A DNA stretch of 63,405 nt, filler included, from Anaerolineae bacterium (GTDB lineage: Bacteria; Chloroflexota; Anaerolineae; B4-G1; DUEL01): assembly GCA_041082215.1 (NCBI GenBank). It is 7 parts of 7 records of this genome, joined end to end, with 100 filler letters (N's around TTAATTAATTAA, not from the genome) between each part and the next. Parts side by side here need not be neighbours in the genome. Positions count along the whole stretch, not along the records: positions 25,631 to 37,060 come from JBDOIF010000069.1; 6 more parts are not named here. One strand, given 5' to 3'. The notes under the pieces are model-generated. The model was given only the letters and a program-made list of their open reading frames with translations, was not told the origin of the DNA and made no database searches. This document shows, one piece after another, positions 7,664 to 45,999 of this stretch; the first letter of the stretch is position 1, and every line of letters begins with the position of its first letter. A program made the translations under genes and the position numbers.

Positions 7664-8224
7664 CTATACCGGCAGCCCACCCCGTTCCCTGGCCCCTCGC
7701 CTCCCGGCCGCTTCCGCTTCGATCCGTTCCTCCTCTCCCGCCTCAATCGGCCAGGTCTCGCTGGCCCGGTCAATAAAGAGCACCCCGTCGAGATGGTCCA
7801 GCTCGTGCTGGAGGACGCGGGCCAGGTATCCCCGTGCCCGCATCCGCACCTTCCGCCCCTGCCGGTCCAGCCCCCTGACGGTGACCGCCAGGTGGCGGGG
7901 GACATGCCCTGCCCAGCCGGGTATCGAAAGGCATCCCTCCACGCCTTCTTCCATCTCCTCGGAAACCCGGGCCAGTTCAGGGTTGATGAGGGCGAAGGAG
8001 ACCCCGGCATCCGGGTCTTCCAGATCCTCAGGGATTTCAACGACAACGACGCGCAACGGCACTCCCACCTGAACGGCCGCCAGGCCCACGCCCCCGGCCG
8101 AGCGCATGGTCTCAAACATATCCTCAATCAACCGCTGGGTCTCGCTGGAGATGCGGGGGACGCGGCGGGATTTCTCGCGCAAGATCGGGTTATCTGAAAA
8201 CAGAATGGGACGTAACGCCATCAA
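7664..8224 (-). CDS. def: Peptide deformylase
   Basis: GVGLAAVQ, EGCLS, QHELDHLDG motifs. Confidence 0.97.
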   Translation of the reverse strand: MMALRPILFSDNPILREKSRRVPRISSETQRLIEDMFETMRSAGGVGLAAVQVGVPLRVVVVEIPEDLEDPDAGVSFALINPELARVSEEMEEGVEGCLSIPGWAGHVPRHLAVTVRGLDRQGRKVRMRARGYLARVLQHELDHLDGVLFIDRASETWPIEAGEEERIEAEAAGRRGARERGGLPV

Positions 8225-9903
8225 TCGGCCTCCTTTTGAGGCGACGGGGAGGACTTGCCAGATTGGCTGCGGATCTCATCGTAGACGCTGAACCAGTCCA
8301 GCATCTCCGTCCGTCGCCGTTCCGCCTCCTGCTCCCGCTGACGACGCCGGGCAGCCTCGATGTGGGAGAAGATCTCCGCCTGCACGGCGTCGGGGCGATA
8401 GACCGTTCGGAAGTGGAAGGCCCCGGCCGGTGCAGCGGTCTCCACGACCACGTCTCCAAAGTGCAGGACCCGCCCCCAGAAGCTCTGAGCAAACCGGACG
8501 TTGGTGATCTGCTCCAGCCTGGCCTCCCGTCGCTCTTCCCGTATGAAAAAGGGGAGCCGCTCTACATGGATGATGCGGGTCGCCGTCACCTGATAGTAGT
8601 CATTCTGCCAGTCCTCCACCTGCCAGAGAAACCACGGGATGATGATGAAACTGGCCAGGGCGTAGAGAACGGTAACGGTCGGGTCCGCGCCCGTTTTCGC
8701 AATGACAAAGAGGACAAGGCCAGTGATGGCGAGGAAAAGGAGAACGGGGATCCCCACTGTACGGATCAGGACGATCCAGTGCTTCCGCCACGTGACCGTC
8801 TCCCCCTCCCGGTGCCAGGTCCCACGGACAGGGGTTGAGACGACGGCGGAGATGAGCGCCAGGCAACCAGGCCGTCGGCCCAGCTCCTGGGATGGCTGGG
8901 GAGGAAGTTCTCCAGCGCCTTCTTCTCCCTCCTGGAGGAAATGCTTTCGCATCGCCCGGTAGATCGTCGCCCGCTCGCGTGCGCGGACGAGCGCACGGGC
9001 CCGGGAGATCTGATCGAAGATTGTGTTACGGACCCTGTCCGGCCGGGGGATGCTGCGAAAGACCACCTGGCCAGCCTCCCCTGCGGTCTCGACGATCAGG
9101 TCGCCGTACCCCCAGATGCGGGACGCAATGCCGATCTGAATCTGCTGAATGTCCTGAATGGCCGAGAGGGGGGCAGCGGAAAAGCTGACGCGCACCAGGC
9201 CGGTCCGTTCCCGGTGGATCACCCGCAGGTTGGTGACGACGTAGAGGTCATTCCGCCAGTCAATGTAAGTGTAGAGGGAAAAGCCCAGCGGGATCAATGT
9301 CAGGATTCCCCCCACCACTGCGGCGAACACACCCCACTGCTCTGCGCCGATTGTGGTGATGAGGAGAGCCAGCAGGGTCATCAGACCGGGAACGAGAAGG
9401 GCCGGCACGAGGACGGCGGGGTGCTTGCGAACCAGTTTGATCACCAGCTCTCCCTCTTCCAGCCAGGGAAAGCGGGGGTATGCCCGGCGCTCGGCTACGT
9501 CGGGGCGCATCCGCAGCGCCCGCTCGATGCCAGGCTCTGTCTCCAACAGGCGGTCAAACGATTCCTTGTCAATGTAAAGGAGCACCGATGGCCTGACACA
9601 TTCCACCGTTGCGTCCCGCACATCTCCCAGCAGGAGAGAAGTTTCACCGAACGCTGCGCCCGGGCCAAGCTCCCCGACAGCCGTCACACGCCCTTCGGGG
9701 TCCACGCGGGTGATCCGCAGGAGGCCCCGCTCAACGATGAAATACTGTCGCCCTGGCTCCCCCTGCTGGCAGACGATCTCTCCGGAACGGTACTCCTTCG
9801 TCTCATGGACAATGGCCGCCAGCGCGCGGAGGTGTGGCCTTGCCAGCCTGGAGAACAGAGGTACGCTCCTGAGCGTCGCGATGATTTCCTCGGTCGAAGG
9901 CAC
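8221..9903 (-). CDS. Membrane protein: N-terminal cNMP-binding domain plus two TM-pair/bPH_2 modules
   Basis: FGETSLL...RDATV cNMP pocket; two repeats of RKH..TM-TM..W.ND.Y.VT..R.IH....YGD/FGD.VVETA. Confidence 0.8.
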   Translation of the reverse strand: MPSTEEIIATLRSVPLFSRLARPHLRALAAIVHETKEYRSGEIVCQQGEPGRQYFIVERGLLRITRVDPEGRVTAVGELGPGAAFGETSLLLGDVRDATVECVRPSVLLYIDKESFDRLLETEPGIERALRMRPDVAERRAYPRFPWLEEGELVIKLVRKHPAVLVPALLVPGLMTLLALLITTIGAEQWGVFAAVVGGILTLIPLGFSLYTYIDWRNDLYVVTNLRVIHRERTGLVRVSFSAAPLSAIQDIQQIQIGIASRIWGYGDLIVETAGEAGQVVFRSIPRPDRVRNTIFDQISRARALVRARERATIYRAMRKHFLQEGEEGAGELPPQPSQELGRRPGCLALISAVVSTPVRGTWHREGETVTWRKHWIVLIRTVGIPVLLFLAITGLVLFVIAKTGADPTVTVLYALASFIIIPWFLWQVEDWQNDYYQVTATRIIHVERLPFFIREERREARLEQITNVRFAQSFWGRVLHFGDVVVETAAPAGAFHFRTVYRPDAVQAEIFSHIEAARRRQREQEAERRRTEMLDWFSVYDEIRSQSGKSSPSPQKEAD

Positions 9904-9941
9904 AGGACCTTTCCCCTTCGGATAAAGTAAAGCTGTATTTA

Positions 9942-9969
9942 ATTATACCATCAAGGCGGGGGAAGACAA
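9942..9969 (-). promoter_or_regulatory. Sigma70 promoter (extended -10) for the cNMP/bPH-def genes
   Basis: Minus strand TTGTCT-16 bp-TATAAT with TG.n extension. Confidence 0.65.
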
Positions 9970-10004
9970 GGCAACATGGTGATAGGTGGTGACTACCTGC
10001 TCAA

Positions 10005-10031
10005 GTAGCGCAGCCTGACAGCCTGCGCTAC
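10005..10031. repeat. GTAG-type REP-like palindrome (copies at 45645, 60080)
   Basis: GTAGCGCAGCCTGACAGCCTGCGCTAC. Confidence 0.75.
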
Positions 10032-10202
10032 GGGCAGCAGATTCACTACCAGACGCTTGTTTGCATAGGCGGAGATTTGAGTATAATAGGCTCAAGCCCA
10101 CAGACTCCCCGCGAAGGAGGTGATGAGAGCCGGTTTTTAAAGGCCCTGCCCCAACCGTTCGCCGATTTTCCGACCCATTCCAGAATAGAGAAGGAGGAGG
10201 AA

Positions 10203-11306
10203 ATGAACAAAAGAATTGGGCTTCTCTTGCCCCTGCTGATAGCCGTCATACTGGTGCTGACCGCCTGCGGCCCCCAGGCCACCCCGACACAAGCCCCGGC
10301 CGAAAAGCTCAAGGTGGCCTTCATATACATCGGCCAGCCCGGCGATCTGGGGTGGACCTATGAGCACGACCGCGGCCGGAAGATGCTGGAAGAGGAACTG
10401 GGAGGCCAGGTGGAGACCATCGTCGTGATGGACGTGCCGGAAGGCCCGGATGCCGAAAAGGCGATCCGCGACGTGGTCCAGCAGGGAGCACAGGTCGTCT
10501 TCGCCACCAGCTTTGGCTATATGGACCCCATGCTGACCGTCGCCCAGGAGTTCCCCGATGTTTACTTTGAGCACTGCTCCGGCTACAAGACCGCCGACAA
10601 CATGGCCACCTACTTCGGCCGGATGTACCAGCCCCGCTACCTTTCCGGCCTGGTCGCCGGCAGCATGACCGAAGCCAACTTCATCGGCTACGTGGCCGCC
10701 CACCCCATCCCCGAGGTCATCCGCGGCATCAACGCTTTCACCCTCGGCGTGCGTAAAGTCAACCCCAACGCCGAGGTCCACGTCGTATGGACCAACACCT
10801 GGTACGATCCGGTGAAGGAGCGGGAGGCAGCCGAGGCGCTGCTGGACGAGGGGGCGGACATCATCGCCCAGCACCAGGACACCACCGAGCCGCAGAAGGC
10901 AGCCAAAGAGCGGAACCTCCTGAGCATCGGCTATGACTCCGATATGCGCCAGTTCGTCGGCGATTCCGTCCTCACCAGCCCGGTCTGGAACTGGGGTAAG
11001 TACTACGTGGCGACAGTGCAGGACATCCTCAACGGCACCTGGACCACCCACCAGTACTGGGGTGGCATGGTTGACGGCGTGGTGGGCCTGGCCGAGTACA
11101 GCCCCCTCGTTCCCGATGAGGTGCGCTCTATAGTGGAGCAGGAAAAGAACCGCATCCTCAGCGGCGAGTGGGATGTGTTCTGCGGCCCCATCGCCGACCA
11201 GGAAGGGAACATCCGCGTGCCTGAGGGGCAGTGCATGAGCGACGCCGATATGCTCAGCTTCGACTGGTTCGTCGAGGGCGTCGTGGGCACCATCCCCACC
11301 CAGTAG
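10203..11306 (+). CDS. BMP/PnrA family ABC substrate-binding lipoprotein (nucleoside/purine type)
   Basis: Lipobox LTAC, DLGWTYEH, FATSFGY, RGINAF.LG, WYDP, QHQD motifs; ATG after AAGGAGGAGG. Confidence 0.92.
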   Translation: MNKRIGLLLPLLIAVILVLTACGPQATPTQAPAEKLKVAFIYIGQPGDLGWTYEHDRGRKMLEEELGGQVETIVVMDVPEGPDAEKAIRDVVQQGAQVVFATSFGYMDPMLTVAQEFPDVYFEHCSGYKTADNMATYFGRMYQPRYLSGLVAGSMTEANFIGYVAAHPIPEVIRGINAFTLGVRKVNPNAEVHVVWTNTWYDPVKEREAAEALLDEGADIIAQHQDTTEPQKAAKERNLLSIGYDSDMRQFVGDSVLTSPVWNWGKYYVATVQDILNGTWTTHQYWGGMVDGVVGLAEYSPLVPDEVRSIVEQEKNRILSGEWDVFCGPIADQEGNIRVPEGQCMSDADMLSFDWFVEGVVGTIPTQ

Positions 11307-25530: not shown

Positions 25531-25630
25531 NNNNNNNNNNNNNNNNNNNNNNNNNNNNNNNNNNNNNNNNNNNNTTAATTAATTAANNNNNNNNNNNNNN
25601 NNNNNNNNNNNNNNNNNNNNNNNNNNNNNN
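25531..25630. other. Artificial contig spacer
   Basis: N-run + TTAATTAATTAA + N-run. Confidence 0.99.
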
Positions 25631-26823
25631 GCCAGTTCGCCGTTGCCGTAGGTCCGCACCCGGACAGCCATATCTCCGGCGGCCAGCCGCCGGTGGGCTT
25701 CCACCAGTTCGGCAATGGGCCGGGTGATGACGTAGCCGATAGGAACAGCGATGACTCCTGCCAGCAGGATGCAGACGACAGCGATGAGGGCCACTCGCTG
25801 GTTGAAGGTGTGAACCAGTCCCAGGAAAGTGGCTTCCCGCGCACCGACGTAGAGGCTGCCGACCACATTGCCCTGGTGATCCCGCAGCGGCTCGTAGCGG
25901 GTGATATACCACTCTTTGACGACGAAGGCGCGCCCCACGTACTCCTGCCCCCCTTCCAGAACGGTCTGACGGACGGCCTGGGAGATGCGGGTACCGATCG
26001 CTCTTTGTCCCTCCTCATCCATCACATTGGTGGAGACCCGCAGGTCGCCCAGGAAGATGGTAACGGTGTCTATTCCGGCGACCTCTTTGATCCGGTCCAC
26101 CAGCGTATAGTCGTTGTTGAACATATAGGCGGAGAGGACAGCACCGATCAGATGCCCCGACTCGTCCCGGAGAGGAGAGACGCCCACCAGCGCCAGCCCT
26201 GCTGTTCCCTCCCGGGGGTCGAAGGGCTCCGGCGCGGCCAGTGGGGTCTCCAGGAGCGGGATGAACGCCTGTCCTTCCAGCCCTACCTGGGCCAGATATT
26301 CTCGAGGGATGACCTCGGTGGCGGCCTGAGCCTCGCCCGTTTCCAGCACGGTGCGGACGATGAGCAGGTCGCCGAAACCGCCGTCGGTGAGGGCGGGCGA
26401 GAGAGTACCATCTGGCCAGAGCACTTTTCCCGCGATCATATTTCCACCTGTGTCCAGGACAGCGATAAGGTGGGTGCCGCCCAGGGCCAGGACAGTGATC
26501 TTGTTGGTGATCTGTCGGTCAATGATGCCGATAGCCTCTTCGTTCCCCGCCCGCGCTGCGGGAAAGTTCTCCACCACCCACGGGTCCAGCACCAGCCGGT
26601 GGCTGATGGCGGCGACTTCGTCCAGTTTGAGTTGATAGAAAGTCTCGGCCAGTTTCATATCCCGCGCCACCCGCTCCGCCTCCGCAGAGGCCAGGTAGTC
26701 GTTGAGGACTCGGGAGATGACCAGCGCGTTCAGCCCAATCGTCAGGGCTGAGATCAGCGCGAAGGAGACCGTCAGCACGATCCGCAACCGTCCGCCCAGA
26801 AGATGCAGGAAGAAGGTTCGCAT
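25631..26823 (-). CDS. Membrane sensor with Cache and HAMP domains (probable histidine kinase; C-terminus lost at contig end)
   Basis: TM, TIFLGDLRVSTNV....RAIGT and YITRYEPLRD..G..VG.LYVG Cache motifs, TM, ITRPI..L HAMP. Confidence 0.85.
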
Positions 26824-26835
26824 TTCTTCACCTTT

Positions 26836-26982
26836 AACCGCAGAGGCACAGAGAGCGCAGAGGTTCCAGAAAGCATGAAGCAGGAAGCAAGTCGCAAGTT
26901 GCAGGTCCAAATCGCAGGATACAATCTTGTATCTTGCAGTCTTGTCTCATCATTCTCTGTGTCCTCTGCGTCTCCGCGGTGA
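26836..26982. repeat. Nested periodic palindrome: 9-bp CAGAG/CTCTG arms enclosing 7-bp GCAAG/CTTG arms
   Basis: AACCGCAGAGGCACAGAGAGCGCAGAG ... CTCTGTGTCCTCTGCGTCTCCGCGGTGA; inner GCAGGAAGCAAGTCGCAAGTTGCAGG / TCTTGTATCTTGCAGTCTTGT. Confidence 0.75.
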
Positions 26983-26986
26983 GAAT

Positions 26987-28126
26987 TCAACCTAGAGGCA
27001 GGGTGAAGCGGAAGGCACTTCCCTTCCCCACCTCCGATTCCACCTCAATGGTCCCCCCGTACATCTCCACCACCTGCCGGACGATGGGGAGGCCCAGGCC
27101 GGTGCCCGTTTCCTGCATGCGCTTCCCCTCTTCGGTCCGGTAGAATTCCTCGAAAATGCGAGGTATTTCGTCGGCCGGGATGCCGATGCCCGTATCAGAG
27201 ACAGCGCCGAGGGCCAGCCCCCGCTCCGGGTCTGCCCCCAATGAGATCCTCACCCGACCGCCGGAGGGGGTGTAGCGGATAGCGTTATCCAGCAGGTGGG
27301 TCCACAGCGCCTTGATGTGATCCGGATTGGCCCGCACCCGGGGGGAATCCCGGACGTCCACCTCCAGGGCCACCCCCTGCCGCTCCGCGCGGGGCTTGAT
27401 GGTCGCCAGCACTCCTTCCAGCACTTCCTGCAGGGAGACGGCCTCCGTCCGGCTGAGGCCGATGCCCTCCTTGAGGTGGGCCAGAAGCAGGAGGTCGTCC
27501 AGGGTCGCCAGCAGCTCCCCGGCCCGCCCCTCGGCCCGCTCCAGCATCTCCGGCTGCTCCTCCGGGGGGATGTAGCCCTTTCGGATCAACTGGAGGGTGT
27601 TCTGGAGAACCGCGACAGGGGCCCGCAGGATATGGACCAGGGTGAGCATGAAGCGGCCCTCCACCGCTTCCAGTTTCTGGAGTTCCGCTTTGGCGCGGGC
27701 CAGTTCCCGGGTTTCCTCTTCCAGCGCCCGGAGCCGTTCGGCCTCCCTGCGCAGCGCCCTCCGCTCCAGTTCCCGGTTGATCACCTGGAGGAGGAGGTCG
27801 GCGGAGAAGGGCTTGGCGATGAAGTCGTGGGCTCCCTCGCGGATGGCCTGGATGGCCAGTTCCACGGTAGCATAGCCAGTGATGATGATGCAGATCAGGT
27901 CGGGGTTCATCTGGCGAACCTGGCGGAGGACCTCCATGCCGCTCATACCGGGCATCATGATGTCCAGGAGGAGGACGTCATAGCGGGACTCCCGGAGTTT
28001 GCGCAGGCCCGCGGGGCCGTTCTCGGCCATGTCCACCTCGAATCCCTGGGGGGCCAGCACGCGCCGGCATCCTTCCCGGATACCGACCTCATCATCTACA
28101 ACCAGGATGCGGGTGGAGGAATTCAT
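26987..28126 (-). CDS. Receiver-histidine kinase hybrid
   Basis: ILVVDDE, LLDIMMP, AKPF receiver; HILRAP H-box, NAIRYT, DTGIGI, GTGLGL. Confidence 0.9.
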   Translation of the reverse strand: MNSSTRILVVDDEVGIREGCRRVLAPQGFEVDMAENGPAGLRKLRESRYDVLLLDIMMPGMSGMEVLRQVRQMNPDLICIIITGYATVELAIQAIREGAHDFIAKPFSADLLLQVINRELERRALRREAERLRALEEETRELARAKAELQKLEAVEGRFMLTLVHILRAPVAVLQNTLQLIRKGYIPPEEQPEMLERAEGRAGELLATLDDLLLLAHLKEGIGLSRTEAVSLQEVLEGVLATIKPRAERQGVALEVDVRDSPRVRANPDHIKALWTHLLDNAIRYTPSGGRVRISLGADPERGLALGAVSDTGIGIPADEIPRIFEEFYRTEEGKRMQETGTGLGLPIVRQVVEMYGGTIEVESEVGKGSAFRFTLPLG

Positions 28127-29343
28127 TTCACTGCAAGTTGCTGCGCCACCAGTTCCACCACATCCAGCACACGGATGCGGAGCTTCTCCTGCCGGGCTGC
28201 GCCCGCCAGGGTCCGCTTGCACTGCTGGCAGGCGGAAAGCAGGATTTTCGCGCCGGTGGCCTGCACCTCGCCGATCCGTCGCCGGGCCACAGCGGCGGTC
28301 AGTTCCTTATCGGCCATTTCCACGTCCCCGCCGCCGCCACAGCAGAGGGAGTACTGGTGGTGGTGCTCCATCTCCACCAGCGTGACGCCGGGAATGGCCC
28401 GGATGACCTCCCGGGGCGCGTCGTACACCCCGCCCGTCCGCCCCAGGTCACAGGGGTCGTGGTAGGTCACCGTCTCCTCCAGCGGCTTCAGTGACAGGCG
28501 CCCATCCGCCAGCAGCTCCGCCAGCAGCTCTGTCACGTGAAGCACCTCAAAGCCCAGCGGCTCACCCACGATGCGGGGGTAGTCGTGCTTCCAGGTGTGG
28601 TAGCAGGAGGGGCAGGCTGCGACCAGCCGCCGCGCACCGGTCCGGCGGACCGCTTCCACATTGTGTCGCATGACCTCTACAGCGGCATCCCCCATCCCGG
28701 CGATGACCAGCGGGAAGCCGCAGCACCACTCCTCGCCGCCGAGCGTCAGGTAATCCATCCCAGCCTGCTCCAGCACCTGCACGACGTTCTGGGGGATGGA
28801 ATAGGACTGGGGATAGAAGGAGCCAACGCATCCCACAAAGAAGACCGCTTCAGCCCGCGTTTTTTTGCCGACCCCCTCCGGGATTTCGGGCAGGTTCTGG
28901 CTCCAGATGAGCCGGTTGGCGTTGTCGTCGCCGGAGATGTTATGGGCGGTCAGCAGCGTCTCACGCAGGTGGTCGAAGACTGGTGGGTAAACCCCCTGCT
29001 GCACCAGGTCGCGGCGCATAGCGATCCACAGCTCGCGGGTCTGGATGTGGGCCGGGCAGACGACGGCGCAGCGGCCGCAGAGGGTGCAGTCGTACGTGCC
29101 GGCCGAGTGGGCCTGGAGCGCCTCCGATTTGGGGGGACGGGGACCGAAAAGGCGGGCCAGAAGGCCGTGCTGGGCCCGGATAAACCGCCGCGCCGCCTCA
29201 ATCTTGCGCAGCGGGGTGATGGCGTCCAGGTCGGGCTTTTCGGTGAAGGTGGGGCACCATTGGGTGCATTCGCCGCAGCGGGTGCAGCCGTCCAGCTCCA
29301 GCAGTTGTCGTATCGTATAGAGGGAAGGGTCCACGGTGGTCAT
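28123..29343 (-). CDS. HdrD/DsrK-like Fe-S oxidoreductase (2x[4Fe-4S] + 2 CCG domains)
   Basis: CTRCGEC...CP, CTLCGRC...CP, WCCG..ACPSC, YHDPC, LCCGGG..ACQQC; ATGA-coupled. Confidence 0.9.
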   Translation of the reverse strand: MTTVDPSLYTIRQLLELDGCTRCGECTQWCPTFTEKPDLDAITPLRKIEAARRFIRAQHGLLARLFGPRPPKSEALQAHSAGTYDCTLCGRCAVVCPAHIQTRELWIAMRRDLVQQGVYPPVFDHLRETLLTAHNISGDDNANRLIWSQNLPEIPEGVGKKTRAEAVFFVGCVGSFYPQSYSIPQNVVQVLEQAGMDYLTLGGEEWCCGFPLVIAGMGDAAVEVMRHNVEAVRRTGARRLVAACPSCYHTWKHDYPRIVGEPLGFEVLHVTELLAELLADGRLSLKPLEETVTYHDPCDLGRTGGVYDAPREVIRAIPGVTLVEMEHHHQYSLCCGGGGDVEMADKELTAAVARRRIGEVQATGAKILLSACQQCKRTLAGAARQEKLRIRVLDVVELVAQQLAVK

Positions 29344-30773
29344 GAGTGTTCTCTCCCGGCAGTCTCCACCGCTGCGATCAGCGGGGTGATGAGAATATGC
29401 AGGAACTTGCTGAAGGGCAGATAGGCGATCGTCGCTGCCACCAGAAGGGCATGTAGATACCACAGGACAGGGTAAACCCCCGTCCAGATCAGGTTCAGCG
29501 GGCGCAGGATAACCGCCAGGGCATACCCCAGGAAGGCGTAGGCTGCCCGGCCGGTGGGGAGGCCGACGCTCAGGATGCGGACGGCCTCCAGAAGCAGGCC
29601 CAGGCAGAAGACGGCTGCCAGGAGGGCGATAGCAGCCCGGTCGAGTGCGCCGGTCCGCAGTCGGGGATCGCGGCGGATGAACCGGCGGTAAAGGGCGATG
29701 CAGACCCCCAGGATGACCAGCGTGGCGCAGAGGTCGTTGAGGAGGGCGATGGCAGGGGTGTCCCGATTCGCCAGGAGGAGGGTCCAGCGGGCGGCAGGCC
29801 AGAACGCCTCGCCCGCCCAGGTAACCAGCCCCAGCAGGAACCGGAACAGGAAGGGCCAGTAGATGAGGGCGTGCATCACCCAGCGGCTGACGCTCTCCTG
29901 GAGCACCCGGCGGAGGAAGATCCCATCAGCGAGGAGGCTTCCCAGGAGACGGAAGAGACGGCGCGAGAAGACCAGCCGCACCAGGTCGCCTGCCAGGTAG
30001 GAGAGCTTCTGCATCGGCGTGATGCCCGGATGGCCCGGGAGTTCGCCCCGCAGGTAGATGGAGGCATTGACTGTGATGCCGATCAGGAAGGCCAGCAATC
30101 CCACTGCCGACCAGGGGTCTTTGACGATGGGGGCCGCCTCATGGCAGGGCATACAGAGGACGCTCCGGGCCGGAAGCGTGATTGCCGGGGCGCCGACCGG
30201 ATTTCCGGCATAGTGGCAGTTCTCGCAGCCTGGCCGCGCGGCCAGCGCGTGCGCCGTCCGGTCCACAGGGTTCCCGGCCTCGTCCGCCCGCGCCGTCTGG
30301 AGCTTCCCCGTCGCCGGGTCTCGCACGATAGGCAGGTCGGGGCGGTGGCAGGCGGCACAGTCGGCGTCCAGGTGTGGCGCGCCCATATGGACGTGGGTCA
30401 GGATCGCCGCGTGGCAGTCGGTGCAGGCGACGGGTTCCGTTGCCCGGTGGGGGTTGCGGGCCACGTCCGCATGGCAGGCGGTGCAGGCAACACGGCCATG
30501 GAGGCTCTCCGCGTAACGAGCGGGGTCAACGTAGACCGGCGTGCGCCCGACGGTGGCCCACGCCTCTACCTGGGGGTCGCCGTGGCACTCCAGACACCGG
30601 GCGATCTCAGCTTCCGCGCCCGAAAGGGTGTTGGGGTTAGGCTGCCGATGACAGGCCCAGCAGTTCCGGTCATCGCCCGATGGGCCCTGCGCCCGGGCGA
30701 CGGCCGCCACGGAGAGGCCTATCCAGATCATCAGGGCTGCTGTGATGAGCGGGATCCAGAGGCTCTTCTTCAT
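29340..30773 (-). CDS. Heptaheme cytochrome c fused to NarI/HdrE/DsrM-like cytochrome b membrane domain
   Basis: Signal peptide, 7 CxxCH (CWACH, CLECH, CTACH, CTDCH, CAACH, CENCH, CMPCH), RWVMHALI and YLPFSKFLH motifs. Confidence 0.85.
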   Translation of the reverse strand: MKKSLWIPLITAALMIWIGLSVAAVARAQGPSGDDRNCWACHRQPNPNTLSGAEAEIARCLECHGDPQVEAWATVGRTPVYVDPARYAESLHGRVACTACHADVARNPHRATEPVACTDCHAAILTHVHMGAPHLDADCAACHRPDLPIVRDPATGKLQTARADEAGNPVDRTAHALAARPGCENCHYAGNPVGAPAITLPARSVLCMPCHEAAPIVKDPWSAVGLLAFLIGITVNASIYLRGELPGHPGITPMQKLSYLAGDLVRLVFSRRLFRLLGSLLADGIFLRRVLQESVSRWVMHALIYWPFLFRFLLGLVTWAGEAFWPAARWTLLLANRDTPAIALLNDLCATLVILGVCIALYRRFIRRDPRLRTGALDRAAIALLAAVFCLGLLLEAVRILSVGLPTGRAAYAFLGYALAVILRPLNLIWTGVYPVLWYLHALLVAATIAYLPFSKFLHILITPLIAAVETAGREHS

Positions 30774-32347
30774 CGCACCCTCATCTCCTCTGCGCGTCGA
30801 GAATCGGCCTCGATCCGTTCCCACTCCAGCGGCCGCTCATGGCGCAGTTCCTCTTCGCTGACCTTGCCGGTGAAGATGACCTTGTTGAGTGGGAACTTGT
30901 CGAACCGGATATGGGTGTTGAAAAGATGGACGATGTAGATGAAGCCGACAGCCAGCAGGGCTTCATCGCTGTGCATGATGTGGGCGATGTTGATGACGAT
31001 GCCGGGCAGGAAGCGGGAGAAGAACTCCGGGAACCAGAGGACCAGCCCGGAAAGGCCGATCACCGGGACCCCCCAGAAGACCGCCCAGTAATCGAACTTC
31101 TCGAAGTAGGCGAAGCGGTCGAAGAGGGGCCGGCTGCCTTTGCCGATGAAGTACAGGAAGTTCTGCCAGATGTCTCTGAAGTCCTTGATCGTCGGCACCG
31201 GTGTGTCGGGTCCCCAGGGCTTCCGTTTCTGGACGAAGACGTAATGGACGATGTACGCCAGGTGCATCAGGCACCACAGGGCGATCACGACCGCGCTGAT
31301 GCGGTGGATGATCCCCATCACCTCCACGCCGCCCTGGAGGCGCGTGAACCACTGTGCCCAGCGGGTGGTTGGGTACTTGAGGGGCATCCCGCTGATGGTG
31401 GAACCGAAGAAGCTGGTCAGCACCAGCAGGTGGACCAGGCGGTGGTAGATGTTGAAGCGCCAGTATTCTGGTCCAGTTTCCGCCCTTTCGGCCGCGTGGC
31501 CCGCCGGGCGGCGGAGCCGTTCGTGCAGGCTGCGGAGGAACCAGAGGCCGGTATGAGCGTAGAAGACGGCCAGGACGCTCGCTGTCAGGGCGATGAAGAA
31601 CAGTTGCACCCAGAAGAGCAGGGCGAAGGCCTGACGGTTCGGGTCCTCCGGCGCGGCCTGTAATGTTTCTCGCGCGTGGACGTAGTAGCCGGTCAGGCTG
31701 ATCTCGGCCCGGGGGTGACAGCGACGGCAGGCCTGCGCTTCCTCGGCGGGGGTTTTCAGGGCCAGGACGTTGTGGGCTCCATGACAGTCGGCGCAGGTGG
31801 CCGCGTTTTCGCGCCCCAGAAGCACGGCCTTGCCGTGGTAATCGTGGGTATAGGTCTCCAGCGCGTCGGGGTGGCAGTCGCCGCAGACCGGGCCGACGGC
31901 CTCCAGCACCTGGCTGCGCGTGGTCACCGTGACGTAGTGGGCATTGTGGCAGTGGCCGCAGGTCGGGGCGGGAACGGCTGGAGCCTCTTCTGGTTGGGAC
32001 CTGGCCGTGGCATGGACGCCCTGTTCATAAGCGGCGTACTCTTCCGGGTGGCAGGAGGCGCACCTCTGATAGTCGTAGAGCGCCAGGCTGTCCTCAGTCA
32101 GCCGTGCCGGATCGGGATGAGGGGTGGTTTCGCTCTCCGGAGCGATGTCCGGATGGCACACGGCGCAGTCCAGATTGCCGTGTGCGGAAGCCCGGAAGCG
32201 CGTCAGGTCTATATGCCACCCTGCCTGAGGCGGGGAGGGGGAGCTGGCGGGGGGGCGGGGGGTGCAGCCTGTCAGCAAAGCCATACCGGCGATGCTGGCC
32301 AGGAGAAGCGGGAAGACGTTGCCGATCAATCGGGGCCGGTTGGTCAC
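30770..32347 (-). CDS. Hexaheme cytochrome c lipoprotein fused to FdnI/Ni-hydrogenase-type cytochrome b domain
   Basis: Lipobox LTGC, 6 CxxCH (CAVCH, CASCH, CGHCH, CGDCH, CADCH, CRRCH), [31 protein letters not shown]. Confidence 0.85.
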
Positions 32348-32489
32348 AGGGATCCCTCCTCATGTTTTGCGTACTGGCTCATACGGAATACGCAAAACGT
32401 AATGCGTCAACTCCACAGGCGTAACAAAACAGACGTTCTCAGCCAGCTACGCTGAGACGGAAGACAAGGAGGCTCCGAAAGGGCCGGAA

Positions 32490-32921
32490 TCAGCCCAGCA
32501 GCTCTTTGTATTTTGCCGCTTCTTCCTGTATGAATGCCTGGAACTCCGGTGAGTTGGCCCGCAGGAGATTGTTCAGCTCGGCCGGGCTGGACATTTCGAT
32601 CTTGACCAGCCAGCCCTGGTCGAAGGGGGACTCGTTGATCAGGGTGGGCTCCCACTCCAGTTCCTCGTTGACGGCAGCAATCGTGCCGCTGACCATGGCG
32701 GGGATGCGGCCCACCCACTTGCCGGATTCCAGAGACATAAAGGTCTGGCCCTGGGCTACCGCCTTACCGGTAGGGGGGATCTCCACATAGACGATCTCTT
32801 TGGCAATGCGCTGACCGAAGTCGGTCATGCCCTGGACAACGGTATTCCCCTCCACCCGGGCCCAGTTGTGCTGCTTGTCGTAGTAGAGGTCATCGGGGAA
32901 TTCAATACCGGCGATCTGCAT
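32490..32921 (-). CDS. GcvH-like lipoyl-carrier protein (LbpA-like)
   Basis: FPDDLYY...H.W, G.TDF, LESGKWVG with lipoyl Lys, SG.I..VN, IN.SP..GWL. Confidence 0.88.
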   Translation of the reverse strand: MQIAGIEFPDDLYYDKQHNWARVEGNTVVQGMTDFGQRIAKEIVYVEIPPTGKAVAQGQTFMSLESGKWVGRIPAMVSGTIAAVNEELEWEPTLINESPFDQGWLVKIEMSSPAELNNLLRANSPEFQAFIQEEAAKYKELLG

Positions 32922-32972
32922 GGTTCACCTCCTCAGCGATCTGATTCGCCCTTTTGATCTTTTTTGCTTTTT

Positions 32973-34433
32973 TTATCGGGAAATGACCTCCCTCAGATTC
33001 CCATCGGCGTCGTAGATATGCACCTCCAGCGGCATCTGGCCCGGCAGCGCGTGGGTGGCGCAGCCGAAGCAGGGGTCGTAGGCGCGGAAGGCCATCTCGA
33101 TCCGGTTGAGCAACCCCTCGGTGATCACCTGCCCCTTGCGGATCAGCCCCCTGGCGGCCTGCCGGACGGACATGGCGATGGGTGCGTAGTTGTTGGTGGT
33201 GCCGACGATGAGGTTGCACTTGACCACCAGCCCGCGCTCATCGGTGATGTAGTGATGGGTCAGGGTGCCGCGCGGGGCCTCCACGATGCCCACCCCCTCG
33301 TCCGGCGTCGCCGTGGGGATGTTGCGCACATGGGGGCTGGTGATCTCCGGGTCGGTGGCCAGTTCCAGCAGTCGCTCCGCCGCGTAGAGCAGTTCGATCA
33401 GCCGGGCCCAGTGGGTTGCCAGCGTATGGTGGACCGGCTTCCCGCCGAGTGTCGCGTAAAACTCCTCGTAGGCCTCCTGGGCCCGGGGGGTCGCCATTCC
33501 GTCGGCGGCGTTGAGGCGGGAGAGAGGGGTGGCCTGGTAGATGCCGCTATCTTTGCCCGTCACCAGCCCTTTCCAGCCTATCTTTTTAAGGAAGGGGAAC
33601 TTGAGGTAGGTCCAGGGCTCCACGTGCTCGGCGATGACCTGGGTGTATTCGTGCGGCGCGTACTTGACGAATTCCCGGCCCTCGGGGTCCACCACCCGGA
33701 CCATGCCGTCGTAGAAGTTCACCCGATTCTGCTCGTCCACCAGGCCCATGTAGTACGTGGGCAGGGTGAACATGTCGGAAAGAATCATATCCCGGTAAGC
33801 CGAATTGTCAAGCACGATCTGGCGGAAGAGCTGGAGGGTGAAGAGGCCGAACTCCACCTCCTCCCGCGCGATGGCCTCAATCTGGGCCCGTTCCTCTTCG
33901 GTGATGGCCTTCCCGACGCCGCCGGGGACGCCGAAGAGGGGATGGACCTTACGCCCGCCCAGCATGCCGATGATGTCCATGGCCAGGCCCCGGGAGCGGA
34001 TAACCCGCCCGCCGATCTCCAGACCGACTTTGTGGATCACCCCCAGGATGTTCCGCTCGGTCGGCGGCGCGTCCGGCCCCAGGACAAAATCGGGGCCGGC
34101 CAGGATGTAGAAATGGGTCATGTGGTCGGCGACGTAGAAAGCGGAGTAGAAGAGTTCCCGCAGTTTCTTCGCCGCCGGGGGGACCTCCACATGGTAGACC
34201 GCGTCGCAGGCCTTGACCGAGGCCATGTGGTGGGCTTCCGGGCAGACGCCGCAGATACGGGGGGTGATGTCTGGCAGTTCTTCCACCGGCCGCCCCTCGA
34301 CGAACTTCTCGAATCCCCGCAGTTCGGGGATCACCAGGTAGGCATTGGCAACGTCTCCCTCTTTGTCCAGGAAGATGTCTATCCTGCCGTGCCCTTCCAG
34401 ACGGGTAATGGGATCAATGCTGATCTTGTGCAT
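32973..34433 (-). CDS. mvhA: [NiFe] hydrogenase large subunit, group 3c (Mvh type)
   Basis: TRLEGHG, RICGVC (L1), EAPRGTL, RAYDPCFGCATH (L2) plus C-terminal extension; context with mvhD/hdrA. Confidence 0.92.
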   Translation of the reverse strand: MHKISIDPITRLEGHGRIDIFLDKEGDVANAYLVIPELRGFEKFVEGRPVEELPDITPRICGVCPEAHHMASVKACDAVYHVEVPPAAKKLRELFYSAFYVADHMTHFYILAGPDFVLGPDAPPTERNILGVIHKVGLEIGGRVIRSRGLAMDIIGMLGGRKVHPLFGVPGGVGKAITEEERAQIEAIAREEVEFGLFTLQLFRQIVLDNSAYRDMILSDMFTLPTYYMGLVDEQNRVNFYDGMVRVVDPEGREFVKYAPHEYTQVIAEHVEPWTYLKFPFLKKIGWKGLVTGKDSGIYQATPLSRLNAADGMATPRAQEAYEEFYATLGGKPVHHTLATHWARLIELLYAAERLLELATDPEITSPHVRNIPTATPDEGVGIVEAPRGTLTHHYITDERGLVVKCNLIVGTTNNYAPIAMSVRQAARGLIRKGQVITEGLLNRIEMAFRAYDPCFGCATHALPGQMPLEVHIYDADGNLREVISR

Positions 34434-34447
34434 AGGGGTTCTCCTTT

Positions 34448-34537
34448 CCTCACCCCTCCCCCTGTCCCCCTCCCCTCTCCTGACCTCTGGTCAGGAGAGG
34501 GGAGGGGGTGGCCCGAAGGGCCGGGGGTGGGGTGAGG
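34448..34537. repeat. CCTCACCCC...GGGGTGAGG palindromic element with perfect 20-bp inner stem
   Basis: 34466-34485 pairs with 34489-34508 (loop TCT); outer arms CCTCACCCC/GGGGTGAGG. Confidence 0.8.
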
Positions 34538-34543
34538 TCAAAT

Positions 34544-35509
34544 TCACATTCTGGCCCGATGCAGGGTTGAAGCGGGCAGGCCGAAGCGGTAGAAGGTGCC
34601 CGCCGGGTCCAGGATTTCGCCCACGATGCGGGCTGCCTCCTCTTCGGTATCGGCATCCGCCACCGAAGCGACCGCCGAAAGGAGCGCCGCGCCCTGATCC
34701 AGGACATTAGGCGGCGGGCCGTAGCACCCCCGACAGGGCTGGTTGACGGTGGGGCAGAGAGCGCCGCAGCCGCCCCGGGTGGCGGGTCCAGCGCAGATGA
34801 TGCCCTGCTCCAGAAGACAGCGCTCCGCGTCCGGGATGATTTCGTGATAGCGGTAGAACTTCTTGATCCGCTTCTCCTCCCGGATGCGCTTGCACTCGTC
34901 GCAGACGGTCTTCTCGTTGGCGCCGACAACGCTCCCCTTCGGGGGGAGTCCGCCGCTGAGGATGGCCTCCACCACGGCCCATATCTGGTGCGGCTGCGGC
35001 GGACAGCCGGGCACGAAGTAGTCCACGTCCGTCACCTGGCCCAGGGTTTTGACGGTGTTGTAGAAGCGGGGAATCTCTATCTCCCCCTCCGGCACCGGAG
35101 TGACCGGCTGGGGGATGATGCCCTCCGGGTTCTCCACCGTGGGCACTTCCAGATAGACCCGCCGGAGAATGGCACTCTTCTCAAAGAAGTTGGCCAGGCC
35201 GGGGATGCAGCCCTCGTAGGCGCAGGAGCCGAAGGCCACCAGCACTTTGGACTTGCGGCGCAGGAGATGGGCCATGTGCTCGTTTTCGCTCGTGCGGATG
35301 GCGCCGTTGAAGAGGCAGACGTCCAGGTGGCCGTCCGGCATAGCCTCCACATCTTTGACCTTGAAGTCCATCGCGACGGGCCAGAAGAGAATCTCCGCCG
35401 CCTCATCCAGCAGGAGGATCTTCTCCCGCAGTTCCACCACGGCGATTTCGCAGCCGCCGCAGGACGCGGCCCAGTAGAGGCCCAGTTTGAGTTTCCCGTT
35501 TTGTGCCAT
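34544..35509 (-). CDS. mvhG: [NiFe] hydrogenase small subunit (Mvh type)
   Basis: SCGGCE, AFGSCA, PGCPP, CDEC, CLLEQG..C.GP.T.GGCGA.CP, CRGCYG. Confidence 0.92.
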   Translation of the reverse strand: MAQNGKLKLGLYWAASCGGCEIAVVELREKILLLDEAAEILFWPVAMDFKVKDVEAMPDGHLDVCLFNGAIRTSENEHMAHLLRRKSKVLVAFGSCAYEGCIPGLANFFEKSAILRRVYLEVPTVENPEGIIPQPVTPVPEGEIEIPRFYNTVKTLGQVTDVDYFVPGCPPQPHQIWAVVEAILSGGLPPKGSVVGANEKTVCDECKRIREEKRIKKFYRYHEIIPDAERCLLEQGIICAGPATRGGCGALCPTVNQPCRGCYGPPPNVLDQGAALLSAVASVADADTEEEAARIVGEILDPAGTFYRFGLPASTLHRARM

Positions 35510-35524
35510 GCTATCCCTCCTTGC

Positions 35525-35557
35525 AGGTGACAGTCACCTTAAAGGTGACCGTCACCT
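35525..35557. repeat. Double AGGTGACNGTCACCT palindrome (second copy at 37284-37316); overlaps mvhD stop
   Basis: AGGTGACAGTCACCT-taa-AGGTGACCGTCACCT. Confidence 0.8.
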
Positions 35558-35988
35558 TCCTTATCCTCCAGTTGGCGCGACCAGTTCAGGGGGCCCAGGG
35601 CGCGGATCCGTTCGGTGAACTCGTGGGTCAGTTGAGCCCACTTGACCGCCTCAGCGCCGGAAATCCAGCCCCAGTGAAAGCGCTCTTTCTCAATGCCGAA
35701 CTGGGCCAGCAACTGCTCCACCAGCGGCATGCGGCGGAAGGTCTTGAAGTTGCCGCTGGAGTAGTGACAGTCGCCCGGAGGATGGCAGCCGGAGACAATC
35801 ACGCCGTCCGCGCCCAGCGCGAAGGCCTTCAGGATGAACGCCGGTTCAATCCGCCCGGAGCACATTACCCGGATGATGTCCACGTTCGGCGGCTGCTCCA
35901 TCCGGCCCACGCCCGCGTTGTCGGCGGCGGTGTACGTACACCAGTTGCAGACAAAAGCAACGATGCGTGGATCAAACTGATCGCTCAT
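35539..35988 (-). CDS. mvhD: Methyl-viologen-reducing hydrogenase delta subunit ([2Fe-2S])
   Basis: FVCNWCTY.AAD, RVMCSGR, GCHPPGDCHY..GN, WISGAE; ATG after GGAGGAG. Confidence 0.93.
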   Translation of the reverse strand: MSDQFDPRIVAFVCNWCTYTAADNAGVGRMEQPPNVDIIRVMCSGRIEPAFILKAFALGADGVIVSGCHPPGDCHYSSGNFKTFRRMPLVEQLLAQFGIEKERFHWGWISGAEAVKWAQLTHEFTERIRALGPLNWSRQLEDKEGDGHL

Positions 35989-36003
35989 GTCTCCTCCCAG
36001 AGT

Positions 36004-36065
36004 AACGGAGTACGGAATACGGAGCACGGAGCACGTACTGCGTATTGCATACTCCGTATTCCGTT
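36004..36065. repeat. 7-bp-period inverted repeat (ACGGA(G/A)T ... (A)TTCCGT)
   Basis: AACGGAGT ACGGAAT ACGGAGC ACGGAGC ACGT ACTGCGT ATTGCAT ACTCCGT ATTCCGTT; related pieces at 32365-32406, 45526-45558, 49495-49536. Confidence 0.8.
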
Positions 36066-37060
36066 TATGTGCTCTGCAAAACGTAGCCGGTCAGCAACGC
36101 CTCCAGTTCCGCCAGAATCTGACGGTCGGCGAAGTGGCGGGCGATGATGGCCTCGGCCGGGCAGGCGGCGACGCACGTGCCGCACCCTTTGCAGAGGGCC
36201 TCGTTCACCCGGGCCACCCGCGCCGCTTCGTCAAACGAGATGGCGCTGTACGGACAGAGGGTGATGCAGGTCTTGCAGCCGGAGCAGAGCCGCTCGTCCA
36301 CCAGCGCCGTTGTCGGGGAGATAACCACTTCGCCCCGGCTCAGCAGGGCCAGCACCTCCGAGGCGGCGGCCCCGGCATGGGCCACCGTATCCGGCACATC
36401 CTTGGGGGCCTGGCAGGCACCGGCCAGGAAGACGCCGTCGGTGTTGGTGTGGAAGGGCCGGAGTTTGGGGTGGGCCTCCTGGAAGAAGCCGCTGGCGCTG
36501 CGGCTGATGCCAAAGAGCGTCGCCACCTGGCCCGAGTCGTGCGGGGCCTCCATGGCCGTCTCCAGGATGACCATATCCACGTCTATCTGGACGGGGATGC
36601 CCAGGTTGGTGTTCTCGGCCTTCACCTGGATGCGCCCGTCGTCCAGGACAGCGACCTCCGCGCCGCGCCCCCGGACGAAGTAGACGCCCTCCCGCTGGAC
36701 CCGCTCGTAGAACTCCTCGTAGTCCTTTCCAAAGGCGCGGATGTCCATGTAGAACTCAAACACCTCCGCGCCGGTCTTATCCCGGACCAGGTGGGCGTGT
36801 TTGAGCGCGTACATGCAGCAGACGCGGGAGCAGTAGCGGTTGGCGTTCTCGTCGCGGCTGCCGACGCAGTGGATGATGGCCACCCGGCGGGGCTTCTCGC
36901 CTTTGGACGTGAGAATCTGGCCCTGGGTGGGGCCGGTGGCGCTGGAGAGCCGCTCAAACTGCAGGCCGTCTATGATGTCCGGGGACTTGCCGTAGGAGAA
37001 GGCGGGGAGACGGCGGGGGTCAAACATCTCAAAGCCGGTGGCGACGACAATGGCCCCCAC
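36065..37060 (-). CDS. hdrA: Heterodisulfide reductase subunit A (C-terminal part; N-terminus lost at contig end)
   Basis: IVVATG, HCVGSRD, YCSRVCCMYALK, FYMDIRAFGK.YEEFY, AGACQAPKDVP, two ferredoxin motifs. Confidence 0.95.
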   Translation of the reverse strand: MGAIVVATGFEMFDPRRLPAFSYGKSPDIIDGLQFERLSSATGPTQGQILTSKGEKPRRVAIIHCVGSRDENANRYCSRVCCMYALKHAHLVRDKTGAEVFEFYMDIRAFGKDYEEFYERVQREGVYFVRGRGAEVAVLDDGRIQVKAENTNLGIPVQIDVDMVILETAMEAPHDSGQVATLFGISRSASGFFQEAHPKLRPFHTNTDGVFLAGACQAPKDVPDTVAHAGAAASEVLALLSRGEVVISPTTALVDERLCSGCKTCITLCPYSAISFDEAARVARVNEALCKGCGTCVAACPAEAIIARHFADRQILAELEALLTGYVLQST

Positions 37061-37160
37061 NNNNNNNNNNNNNNNNNNNNNNNNNNNNNNNNNNNNNNNN
37101 NNNNTTAATTAATTAANNNNNNNNNNNNNNNNNNNNNNNNNNNNNNNNNNNNNNNNNNNN
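37061..37160. other. Artificial contig spacer
   Basis: N-run + TTAATTAATTAA + N-run. Confidence 0.99.
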
Positions 37161-37220
37161 CCCCCCCCCCCCCCCCCCGGGGCCACAGGCCCAGAGAGGG
37201 CGGCTTCAATCGGCGCTTGC

Positions 37221-41979: not shown

Positions 41980-42079
41980 NNNNNNNNNNNNNNNNNNNNN
42001 NNNNNNNNNNNNNNNNNNNNNNNTTAATTAATTAANNNNNNNNNNNNNNNNNNNNNNNNNNNNNNNNNNNNNNNNNNNN
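41980..42079. other. Artificial contig spacer
   Basis: N-run + TTAATTAATTAA + N-run. Confidence 0.99.
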
Positions 42080-45899: not shown

Positions 45900-45999
45900 N
45901 NNNNNNNNNNNNNNNNNNNNNNNNNNNNNNNNNNNNNNNNNNNTTAATTAATTAANNNNNNNNNNNNNNNNNNNNNNNNNNNNNNNNNNNNNNNNNNNN
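45900..45999. other. Artificial contig spacer
   Basis: N-run + TTAATTAATTAA + N-run. Confidence 0.99.

Follow-up and report, generated by a model that had tools for sequence, protein, structure and literature searches.

A cysteine-free GcvH paralog encoded with Hdr-type CCG proteins in Chloroflexota, a putative lipoyl carrier outside glycine cleavage

Introduction

What does a member of the glycine cleavage H-protein family do beside genes for a [NiFe] hydrogenase and Hdr proteins? The question is raised by a gene, here called GcvHL, at positions 32490–32921 of a 63,405-nucleotide stretch of draft-genome DNA (the window) from an Anaerolineae bacterium (GCA_041082215.1). The original prediction, made from the sequence alone, read it as a GcvH paralog that carries redox equivalents or sulfur rather than an aminomethyl group. 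Hdr-like CCG proteins are widespread in non-methanogens, and to our knowledge a thiol/disulfide substrate is known for few of them; examples are DsrC, for sulfate reducers, and, as has been proposed, the sulfur bound to LbpA in sHdr systems. The analysis reported here supports a view of GcvHL as a lipoyl-carrier paralog, presumably lipoylated, that has departed from glycine cleavage, is related to LbpA, lacks cysteine and is associated with CCG proteins.

Results

GcvHL belongs to a clade with an invariant loop

The gene and its presumed modification site lie as follows:

32490..32921, minus strand: GcvHL, GcvH-like predicted lipoyl carrier of 143 amino acids (aa), no cysteine, isoelectric point (pI) 4.49 (open reading frame, PF01597, NCBIfam)
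32706..32729, minus strand: codons of ESGKWVGR (residues 65–72), invariant in the clade; putative lipoyl Lys68 at 32718–32720

GcvHL scores 125.8 bits against PF01597 (GCV_H). With 130.8 bits it is above the cut-off (117) of NF002270, a loose model of the GcvH subfamily, and with 100.8 bits it is below that (115.85) of the gcvH equivalog TIGR00527. Lys68 aligns with the lipoyl Lys63 of the pea H protein in the context LESGKWVGR, so the lipoyl lysine is kept in the LESGKWVG setting that the original prediction had pointed out. An identity as GcvH-L, 'not_gcvH' or Desulfovibrio GcvH-related protein was considered and rejected on the scores for TIGR03077 (45.3 vs 144 bits) and NF045810 (43.8 vs 150 bits).

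Scanning a single genome for each species yielded 79 loci. Of these, 60 (L011–L070), from metagenome-assembled genomes of Anaerolineae, Thermoflexales or Caldilineae, encode proteins 56–90% identical to GcvHL and together with the window protein make up 61 clade proteins; the other 19 are canonical loci of other phyla, in which identity falls to 47% or less. ESGKWVGR is present in 60/60 clade loci, and canonical copies matching the motif pattern read ESVK(A/T); the motif is therefore not a matter of chance, and the non-canonical loop noted for the window protein is a property of the clade as a whole. No cysteine occurs in 59 of the 60 clade proteins. The best 120 matches in a large protein collection are 70–97% identical and, where named, are called 'glycine cleavage system protein H', a name that is misleading for this clade. 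In the papers searched, which did not include subscription journals, neither this Chloroflexota clade nor a GcvH-like protein accompanied by HdrD/NarI modules is described, and no paper pairs a GcvH-like or lipoate-binding protein with HdrD, DsrK, TmcB or Isp2, or with Mvh/HdrA in Chloroflexota; the exceptions linking GcvH-like or lipoate-binding proteins to Hdr systems are the relevant passages of PMC9723716 and of the sHdr papers cited below.

The aminomethyl-cavity residues are lost

In the E. coli H protein, Glu12 and Glu14 hold the aminomethyl-lipoyl arm, and Ser67, Asp68 and Tyr70 are passed on its release, according to the account of the arm in PMC7733448. Residues were counted in an alignment of 106 sequences, of which 30 canonical, 61 clade and 8 LbpA-type proteins (described below) were tabulated:

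Glu14 position: canonical Glu 30/30; clade 0/61 (Asn, Gly, Ser or Asp); LbpA-type 0/8
Ser67 position: canonical Ser 25/30; clade Gly 61/61; LbpA-type Gly 7/8
Asp68 position: canonical Asp 27/30; clade Arg 61/61; LbpA-type Pro or Ala
Tyr70 position: canonical Tyr/Phe 30/30; clade aromatic 0/61 (Pro, Ala or other); LbpA-type Phe 1/8
Residue after the lysine: canonical Ala or Thr (Trp 0/30); clade Trp 61/61; LbpA-type Trp 8/8

GcvHL itself has Asn19, Gly71, Arg72 and Pro74 at the positions of E. coli Glu14, Ser67, Asp68 and Tyr70. The loss of these residues in all 61 proteins, together with the absence of gcvP and gcvT from the 8-kb surroundings of every clade locus (0/60), supports the prediction that GcvHL is no aminomethyl carrier. 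The ESGKW loop and the lost equivalents of Glu14, Ser67, Asp68 and Tyr70 serve as simple sequence markers dividing Hdr-linked from aminomethyl carriers.

CCG proteins are the conserved neighbours

Neighbouring genes were counted by tblastn with a query panel within 8 kb of the 60 clade and 19 canonical loci:

CCG protein (HdrD/HdrB type): clade 50/60, canonical 0/19
NarI-like: clade 30/60, canonical 0/19
LplA: clade 26/60, canonical 0/19
HdrA: clade 22/60, canonical 0/19
MvhD: clade 13/60, canonical 0/19
MvhA-like: clade 8/60, canonical 0/19
gcvP: clade 0/60, canonical 7/19
gcvT: clade 0/60, canonical 8/19

At least one of CCG protein, LplA, HdrA and MvhD is found in 58 of the 60 clade loci; in the two that remain, the GcvHL gene lies about 130 bp or less from the upstream end of the locus. 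TusA and DsrE gave no match in any of the 79 loci. Apart from the window, just four loci have a hydrogenase directly adjoining GcvHL, and each of the four encodes a GcvHL protein at least 87% identical. The location in a hydrogenase operon, which had been read correctly for the window, is accordingly confined to close relatives, and the conserved partners are CCG/Hdr proteins.

Nine clade loci were scanned with Pfam, using open reading frames from a simple in-house caller:

L013: same layout as the window
L016, L026, L069: NarI and HdrD fused in one open reading frame (NarI::HdrD) immediately after GcvHL
L025: GcvHL-LplA-HdrC-HdrB-HdrA-AOR
L045: NuoEF-type input
L041: molybdenum (Mo)-oxidoreductase/NrfD module (Psr/Ttr-like)
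L049: LplA, two radical SAM genes and HdrB/C-like genes
L039: besides LplA, just CsoR, thioredoxin and thioredoxin reductase; an exception, with no CCG protein

Among these nine the electron-input module varies while GcvHL and a CCG protein persist, L039 excepted. The inputs seen are Mvh hydrogenase, NuoEF-like proteins, Mo-oxidoreductase with NrfD, HdrCBA with AOR, and glycerol-3-phosphate-type flavoproteins.

GcvHL is related to, and distinct from, LbpA

The association of LbpA with sHdr is established (PMC6067878, PMC10332631 and the preprints 10.1101/2023.12.18.572138 and 10.64898/2026.10.01.755906). For comparison we took eight GcvH-like proteins from the sHdr-like clusters L135, L136 and L138 of multi-copy Chloroflexota genomes. 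All three clusters encode CCG proteins, EtfB or EtfBA, LplA and two or three GcvH-like proteins; a short HdrA (355–356 aa) occurs in L135 and L136, TusA and DsrE in L135 and a radical SAM protein in L136. This layout is the 'Group III' of Cao et al. 2018, as that group is described in PMC6067878. The eight proteins read ES(G/A/S)KW(V/L)G(P/A/S), a motif derived from these eight and without a published definition, and the likeness of ESGKWVG to LbpA put forward in the original prediction proved sound (ES(G/A/S)KW(V/L)G in 8/8). Cysteines close to the N and the C terminus, which PMC6067878 calls the most conspicuous feature of LbpA, are present in seven of the eight.

Both GcvHL and the LbpA of sHdr systems (Cao et al. 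2018, PMC6067878; Tanabe et al. 2023, PMC10332631) are GcvH-fold carriers encoded with Hdr-like CCG proteins, and they have in common the ES(G/A/S)KW(V)G loop, the conserved lipoyl lysine and the loss of the cavity residues. LbpA has a dedicated Lpl(AB)-type ligase, and a candidate for such a ligase of GcvHL is proposed below. Unlike LbpA, GcvHL has no cysteine pair, and it has Arg at K+4 where the LbpA-type proteins have Pro or Ala. Its acidic pI (4.49) compares with 4.53–6.73 for the eight LbpA-type proteins and 4.05–4.49 for the canonical copies computed. A more basic surface and pI than in GcvH are ascribed to LbpA in section 2.4 of preprint 10.64898/2026.10.01.755906. The genetic context differs as well, with no TusA, DsrE, rhodanese, short sHdrA or Etf, and instead a long HdrA with MvhD, HdrD/NarI modules, hydrogenase and multihaem cytochromes. 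GcvHL is not a member of LbpA proper, as both the terminal cysteine pair and the sHdr/sulfurtransferase context are absent. The NCBIfam scan of GcvHL returned no LbpA-specific model among its matches, and the PDB search returned no LbpA structure. Three further genomes of the window's class encode cysteine-bearing LbpA-type proteins, and two genomes of other Chloroflexota families encode ESGKWVGR proteins adjoining CCG genes.

An IQ-TREE phylogeny was built from 81 rows and 143 columns, which are few for so many rows; its sHdr-linked LbpA-type rows were drawn from Chloroflexota. The GcvHL clade is monophyletic (100/99) and sister to these Chloroflexota LbpA-type proteins with moderate support. 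A group of 39 rows (89/85, not starred) unites the GcvHL clade, the LbpA-type proteins, the HdrD-linked proteins of Acidithiobacillus ferrooxidans and those linked to Isp hydrogenases. A canonical Chloroflexota clade (99/98) contains the canonical GcvH of the window's genome, and a tree constrained to keep the GcvHL clade with that canonical group is worse by 34.6 log-likelihood units (P value of the approximately unbiased (AU) test, p-AU, 0.014; the group was named after the tree was seen). GcvHL thus branches outside canonical GcvH.

Some other LbpA-like proteins came to light. A search of plasmids for bona fide LbpA gave no sHdr cluster and turned up a canonical gcv operon in Paracoccus. 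Plasmid p1 of A. ferrooxidans (47 kb; L090, NZ_CP040512.1, 14001–17704) encodes an LbpA-like GcvH with ESGKWAGG and cysteines at 7, 143 and 146, with a 'heterodisulfide reductase-related' gene and hemerythrin, thioredoxin and globin genes as neighbours. Locus L137 (G108:C51:291000-310999) holds an Isp-like, group-1-type [NiFe] hydrogenase with a fused NarI::HdrD-like protein (674 aa) encoded between the genes of its small and large subunits. On the flanks of this hydrogenase lie DsrE, two GcvH-like, two LplA and two radical SAM (LipS-like) genes.

The GcvHL locus

The window consists of seven contigs (C5, C10, C11, C12, C13, C20 and C21) of the draft genome, joined by N44-TTAATTAATTAA-N44 spacers at 25531–25630, 37061–37160, 41980–42079, 45900–45999, 60561–60660 and 62258–62357, so that synteny across the joints is not real. 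GcvHL is carried by contig C10 (window 25631–37060, 11,430 bp), which encodes, from its upstream end:

36065..37060, minus strand: HdrA, C-terminal two thirds, truncated by the contig end (NCBIfam)
35539..36027, minus strand: MvhD/FlpD-type iron-sulfur subunit (PF02662, 168.9 bits)
34544..35509, minus strand: hydrogenase small subunit, MvhG/VhuG-like (Pfam and NCBIfam scans)
32973..34433, minus strand: [NiFe] hydrogenase large subunit, Mvh/Vhu type (MvhA; PF00374; NF041785 VhuA 401.9 bits, under cut-off; PDB 5odc_F MvhA, E 5e-111)
32437..32457, minus strand: weak terminator-like hairpin 33 nt past the GcvHL stop codon (one site vs 0.7 expected in shuffles)
32364..32398, no strand assigned: perfect 10-nt inverted repeat (GTTTTGCGTA N15 TACGCAAAAC), 17 nt ahead of the point where the cytochrome gene starts
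30770..32347, minus strand: membrane protein with six CXXCH haem c motifs and a cytochrome b561-type domain (Pfam and motifs)
29340..30824, minus strand: membrane protein with seven CXXCH motifs and a NarI/DsrM-type cytochrome b domain (Pfam and motifs)
28123..29463, minus strand: HdrD/DsrK-type protein carrying a pair of ferredoxin-type 4Fe-4S motifs and two complete CCG motifs; likely start codon 29343
26987..28222, minus strand: hybrid response regulator/histidine kinase (Pfam)
25631..26910, minus strand: Cache/HAMP sensor, truncated by the contig end (Pfam)

The GcvHL start lies 51 bp behind the mvhA stop and is preceded by GGAGG, and on these grounds GcvHL is taken as part of the hydrogenase/Hdr operon. 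The missing upstream end of the operon is found at the start of contig C141, which encodes the N-terminal part of HdrA and a soluble HdrD-like protein, 96% and 91% identical, respectively, to the complete homologous locus L013. A scan for promoters and terminators around GcvHL gave no signal above chance. The inverted repeat is unusually AT-rich for this DNA and may be an operator. The sequencing runs that contain the stretch are hot-spring metagenomes, with at least half of the sampled words in six runs from two studies, one of which runs may be the source; in RNA-labelled assemblies (three runs, two flagged 'probably DNA') no contig covered 32376–32897.

Other H proteins and lipoate genes of the genome

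Since the window is made of joined contigs, the earlier statement that no glycine-cleavage genes lie nearby applies to contig C10. It holds at the level of the genome too (3.53 Mb, 96% complete), where the canonical gcvH (144.8 bits, ESVKAASD) directly adjoins gcvPA and gcvPB on contig C150 and the best GCV_T match lies on C161. With three GCV_H genes in the genome, GcvHL is not its only H protein alongside gcvPT. Each of five related genomes likewise has a canonical copy (134–149 bits) and a clade copy (123–130 bits). The third GCV_H paralog, on C147 (region 7970–11000), has a VETMKAD motif and no cysteine; it follows a dihydrolipoamide-dehydrogenase-like gene and precedes a small cysteine-rich open reading frame, with an ArsR-like gene upstream (names from N-terminal sequences), and its relatives occur in three of the five related genomes.

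The genome encodes two LipA and three LplA/LipB/LipM-family genes. One LplA (C83:59325-60362) lies inside the cluster hdrCB-hdrA-mvhD-lplA-hdrB'-hdrC'-...-hdrD-hdrA and is 41–42% identical to the LplA proteins adjoining the LbpAs of L135 and L138. Abundance was assessed in 301 evenly drawn Chloroflexota genomes, the window genome included; the tallies of GCV_H, clade and LplA matches cover four genomes flagged unpublished (G208, G136, G269 and G173), none with a clade or LplA match and none of them the basis of a single claim. The C83-type LplA occurs in 23/301 (E <= 1e-40), including 4/4 clade holders, the sHdr-type genomes G171, G236, G300 and G108, and 11/20 genomes of family f2, each of these 11 with at least three GCV_H copies among the matches listed. 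Because related genomes are not independent, this co-occurrence does not amount to a statistical test. We propose the C83-type LplA as a dedicated ligase for GcvHL. Of the lipoate assembly genes that the original prediction suggested looking for, an LplA was located within an hdr cluster, and no LipS1/S2-like gene was found in this genome; LipS-like radical SAM genes occur in 2/60 clade loci. A 574-aa open frame at C86:6367-7842 (minus strand) combines a LipA match with an LplA/LipB/LipM-family match and is possibly a fused octanoyltransferase-lipoyl synthase.

CCG proteins and HdrA

The two ferredoxin-type motifs and all ten CCG-domain cysteines of the membrane-module HdrD-like protein (28123–29463) are kept in 24/24 homologues. 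Its NCBIfam scores are all under the cut-offs (DsrK 100 bits, TmcB 94, HmcF 78). The soluble HdrD-like and HdrB-like proteins of the genome have two CCG motifs and no His inside the CxxC motifs. All six HdrA genes examined (C141:1-677, minus strand, which is the operon's own HdrA; two on C83; L013:4950-6920; L025:13098-15053; L026:7445-9403) contain one in-frame TGA, in the context TLDCS[T/A]-TGA-ILGPKMMD, which probably encodes selenocysteine.

Discussion

A proposed lipoyl substrate for Hdr-type enzymes

We give a slightly better than even chance to the reading that GcvHL is a lipoyl dithiol/disulfide carrier serving Hdr-type complexes. Its working group would be the lipoyl dithiol/disulfide, not an aminomethyl group, and the lipoyl disulfide would be a protein-bound substrate for Hdr-type CCG enzymes. 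A cytoplasmic complex of Mvh hydrogenase, HdrA with its probable selenocysteine and the soluble HdrD-like protein would reduce this disulfide with H2, and possibly also reduce ferredoxin via flavin-based bifurcation. The membrane module, composed of the HdrD-like protein, the NarI-type cytochrome b and 13 c-type haems, would re-oxidise dihydrolipoyl GcvHL and hand the electrons to quinone or periplasmic acceptors; the reverse direction is possible. That GcvHL is lipoylated and binds CCG proteins, which way electrons flow and whether they bifurcate are all inferences. The lipoyl-substrate mechanism is the most economical one. As GcvHL appears to have left glycine cleavage, stays with CCG proteins and has a proposed ligase of its own, it is a concrete, clonable candidate, whose lipoyl disulfide can be tested as the missing substrate of bacterial Hdr-type enzymes. 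More tentatively, and with considerable doubt, one may think of a bacterial, methanogen-like heterodisulfide cycle with protein-bound lipoate, in which reduction by Mvh-HdrA-HdrD and re-oxidation at the membrane would link cytoplasmic H2 oxidation to the quinone pool or periplasmic acceptors, and in which many bacterial Hdr-like enzymes would have their long-sought substrate in LbpA-like carriers that lack cysteine.

Several observations weigh against the dithiol/disulfide reading. With a potential of about –290 mV, free lipoamide lies far below the heterodisulfide of coenzymes M and B (CoM-S-S-CoB), which would leave little driving force for H2-driven ferredoxin reduction. The clade is rare, with matches at E <= 1e-30 in 3/300 other sampled genomes, and those three are 54–55% identical. 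The proposed ligase lies on a different contig from GcvHL. A 142-bp gap with the weak hairpin and the inverted repeat separates GcvHL from the cytochrome/HdrD genes, so the two may be separate transcription units. Support for the grouping with LbpA-type proteins is modest (89/85 on 143 columns), and the group of the AU test was chosen post hoc.

A further point on that side concerns the membrane module. The closest solved relative of the HdrD-like protein is mycobacterial EtfD (9ojn, E 6.9e-39; HdrB chains about 5e-5), whose CCG clusters form an electron wire with no disulfide site. In EtfD, as presented in the pertinent part of PMC13083937, the first CCG motif has Thr539 instead of its second Cys and the second cluster is completed by His583, which gives a linear 3Fe-4S and a non-catalytic noncubane cluster; the wire is deemed non-catalytic there on account of Thr539 and His583. 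At these two positions the HdrD-like protein has Cys and Ser (CCG vs CTG and CPSC vs CPHC in EtfD), and in its predicted CCG ligands it matches Hdr, the catalytic type, rather than EtfD. The fused NarI::HdrD form of relatives has the architecture of EtfD.

Alternative explanations

The membrane NarI/HdrD-like module could nevertheless be an EtfD/EMO-type electron wire without a disulfide, with GcvHL as an accessory or part of a thiol-stress defence. EtfD being the best solved match speaks for this, as do the CsoR-, thioredoxin- and thioredoxin-reductase-like neighbours in L039; the Hdr-type ligands speak against it, no ETF gene adjoins the clade genes in the nine scanned loci, and the solved GcvH-L of the macrodomain/sirtuin system is a marginal match only (5a35, E 0.026). 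We regard this explanation as improbable. A low probability also attaches to GcvHL and LplA as a lipoyl relay or salvage pair, in which GcvHL would be the first acceptor and pass lipoate on, comparable to the Bacillus LipM/LipL relay via GcvH: in 14/60 loci LplA is no more than 500 bp away from the gene, and L039 and L042 have LplA and no CCG protein within 8 kb, yet a CCG protein is present in 50/60, no amidotransferase gene stands beside GcvHL in the nine Pfam-scanned loci, and the genome has two LipA genes, two other LplA/LipB/LipM-family genes and a canonical GcvH able to serve as relay.

A persulfide or polysulfide carrier like LbpA, with lipoyl-bound sulfane sulfur processed by the CCG proteins, for instance in H2-linked sulfur reduction or in sulfur oxidation, is unlikely in our estimation, less so than the relay or the wire. 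It would fit the sister position to the LbpA-type proteins and their common ESxKW loop, the Psr/Ttr-like Mo-oxidoreductase with NrfD in clade locus L041, and L137, where an Isp-type hydrogenase and a fused NarI::HdrD are flanked by DsrE and GcvH-like genes. A dithiol/disulfide role is preferred to persulfide carriage because GcvHL, like 59/60 clade members and unlike LbpA with its terminal cysteines, has no cysteine, and because neither TusA nor DsrE was matched in the 79 loci; moreover, the neighbouring HdrA, accompanied by MvhD, is a long one as in methanogens and differs from the 355-aa sHdrA of L135 and L136. An ordinary H protein of glycine cleavage or of the reductive glycine pathway is very improbable: the public name and the NF002270 score would suit it, and the score below the TIGR00527 cut-off, the canonical copy with gcvPA/PB elsewhere in the genome, the lost cavity residues, the lack of gcv genes nearby and the separate clade all contradict it.

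Relation to known Hdr systems

Several known complexes come close to the GcvHL system. The electron-bifurcating MvhADG-HdrABC complex of methanogens (PDB 5ODC) has homologues of MvhA, MvhG, MvhD and HdrA in this one operon; the differences are a single HdrD-like protein where methanogens have HdrB and HdrC, the gene of a predicted lipoyl carrier after mvhA and a bacterial host. Within the operon there is no sign of coenzyme M/B use (a genome search for these was not made). HdrDE of Methanosarcina and DsrMK, Tmc and Hmc likewise combine a NarI-type cytochrome b with a cytoplasmic two-CCG subunit of HdrD/DsrK type, and Tmc and Hmc have c-type multihaem domains, as in the GcvHL locus. They differ in that the substrate proposed here is a lipoyl protein, not CoM-S-S-CoB or a DsrC trisulfide, and in that many relatives have NarI and HdrD as a single fused polypeptide. 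The gene context is similar, with HdrB/HdrA2B2C2 and hydrogenase, for the GcvH of the Culexarchaeia Ehe/Hdr cluster, which in the discussion of that cluster (Kohtz et al. 2022, PMC9723716) is suggested to carry perhaps a disulfide of unknown nature. That case concerns an archaeon with a membrane-bound group 4 hydrogenase, its GcvH is presented there without sequence or phylogenetic analysis, and the likeness drawn here is one of gene context.

Further observations

Contig C11 opens with a run of 19 C (37161–37179), probably an assembly artefact. Very many HdrA, HdrB and HdrC paralog matches fall on contigs C100 (about 18–108 kb) and C83 (53–65 kb), with at least ten HdrA-like stretches on C100 alone (tblastn). 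A 1.9-Mb Chloroflexota genome, G123 (L112, L117, L122, L127, L129, L131 and L133), has eight GCV_H-family matches, mostly longer (141–236 aa) and with an E-G-x-K-M motif, five of which form a clade of their own in the tree.

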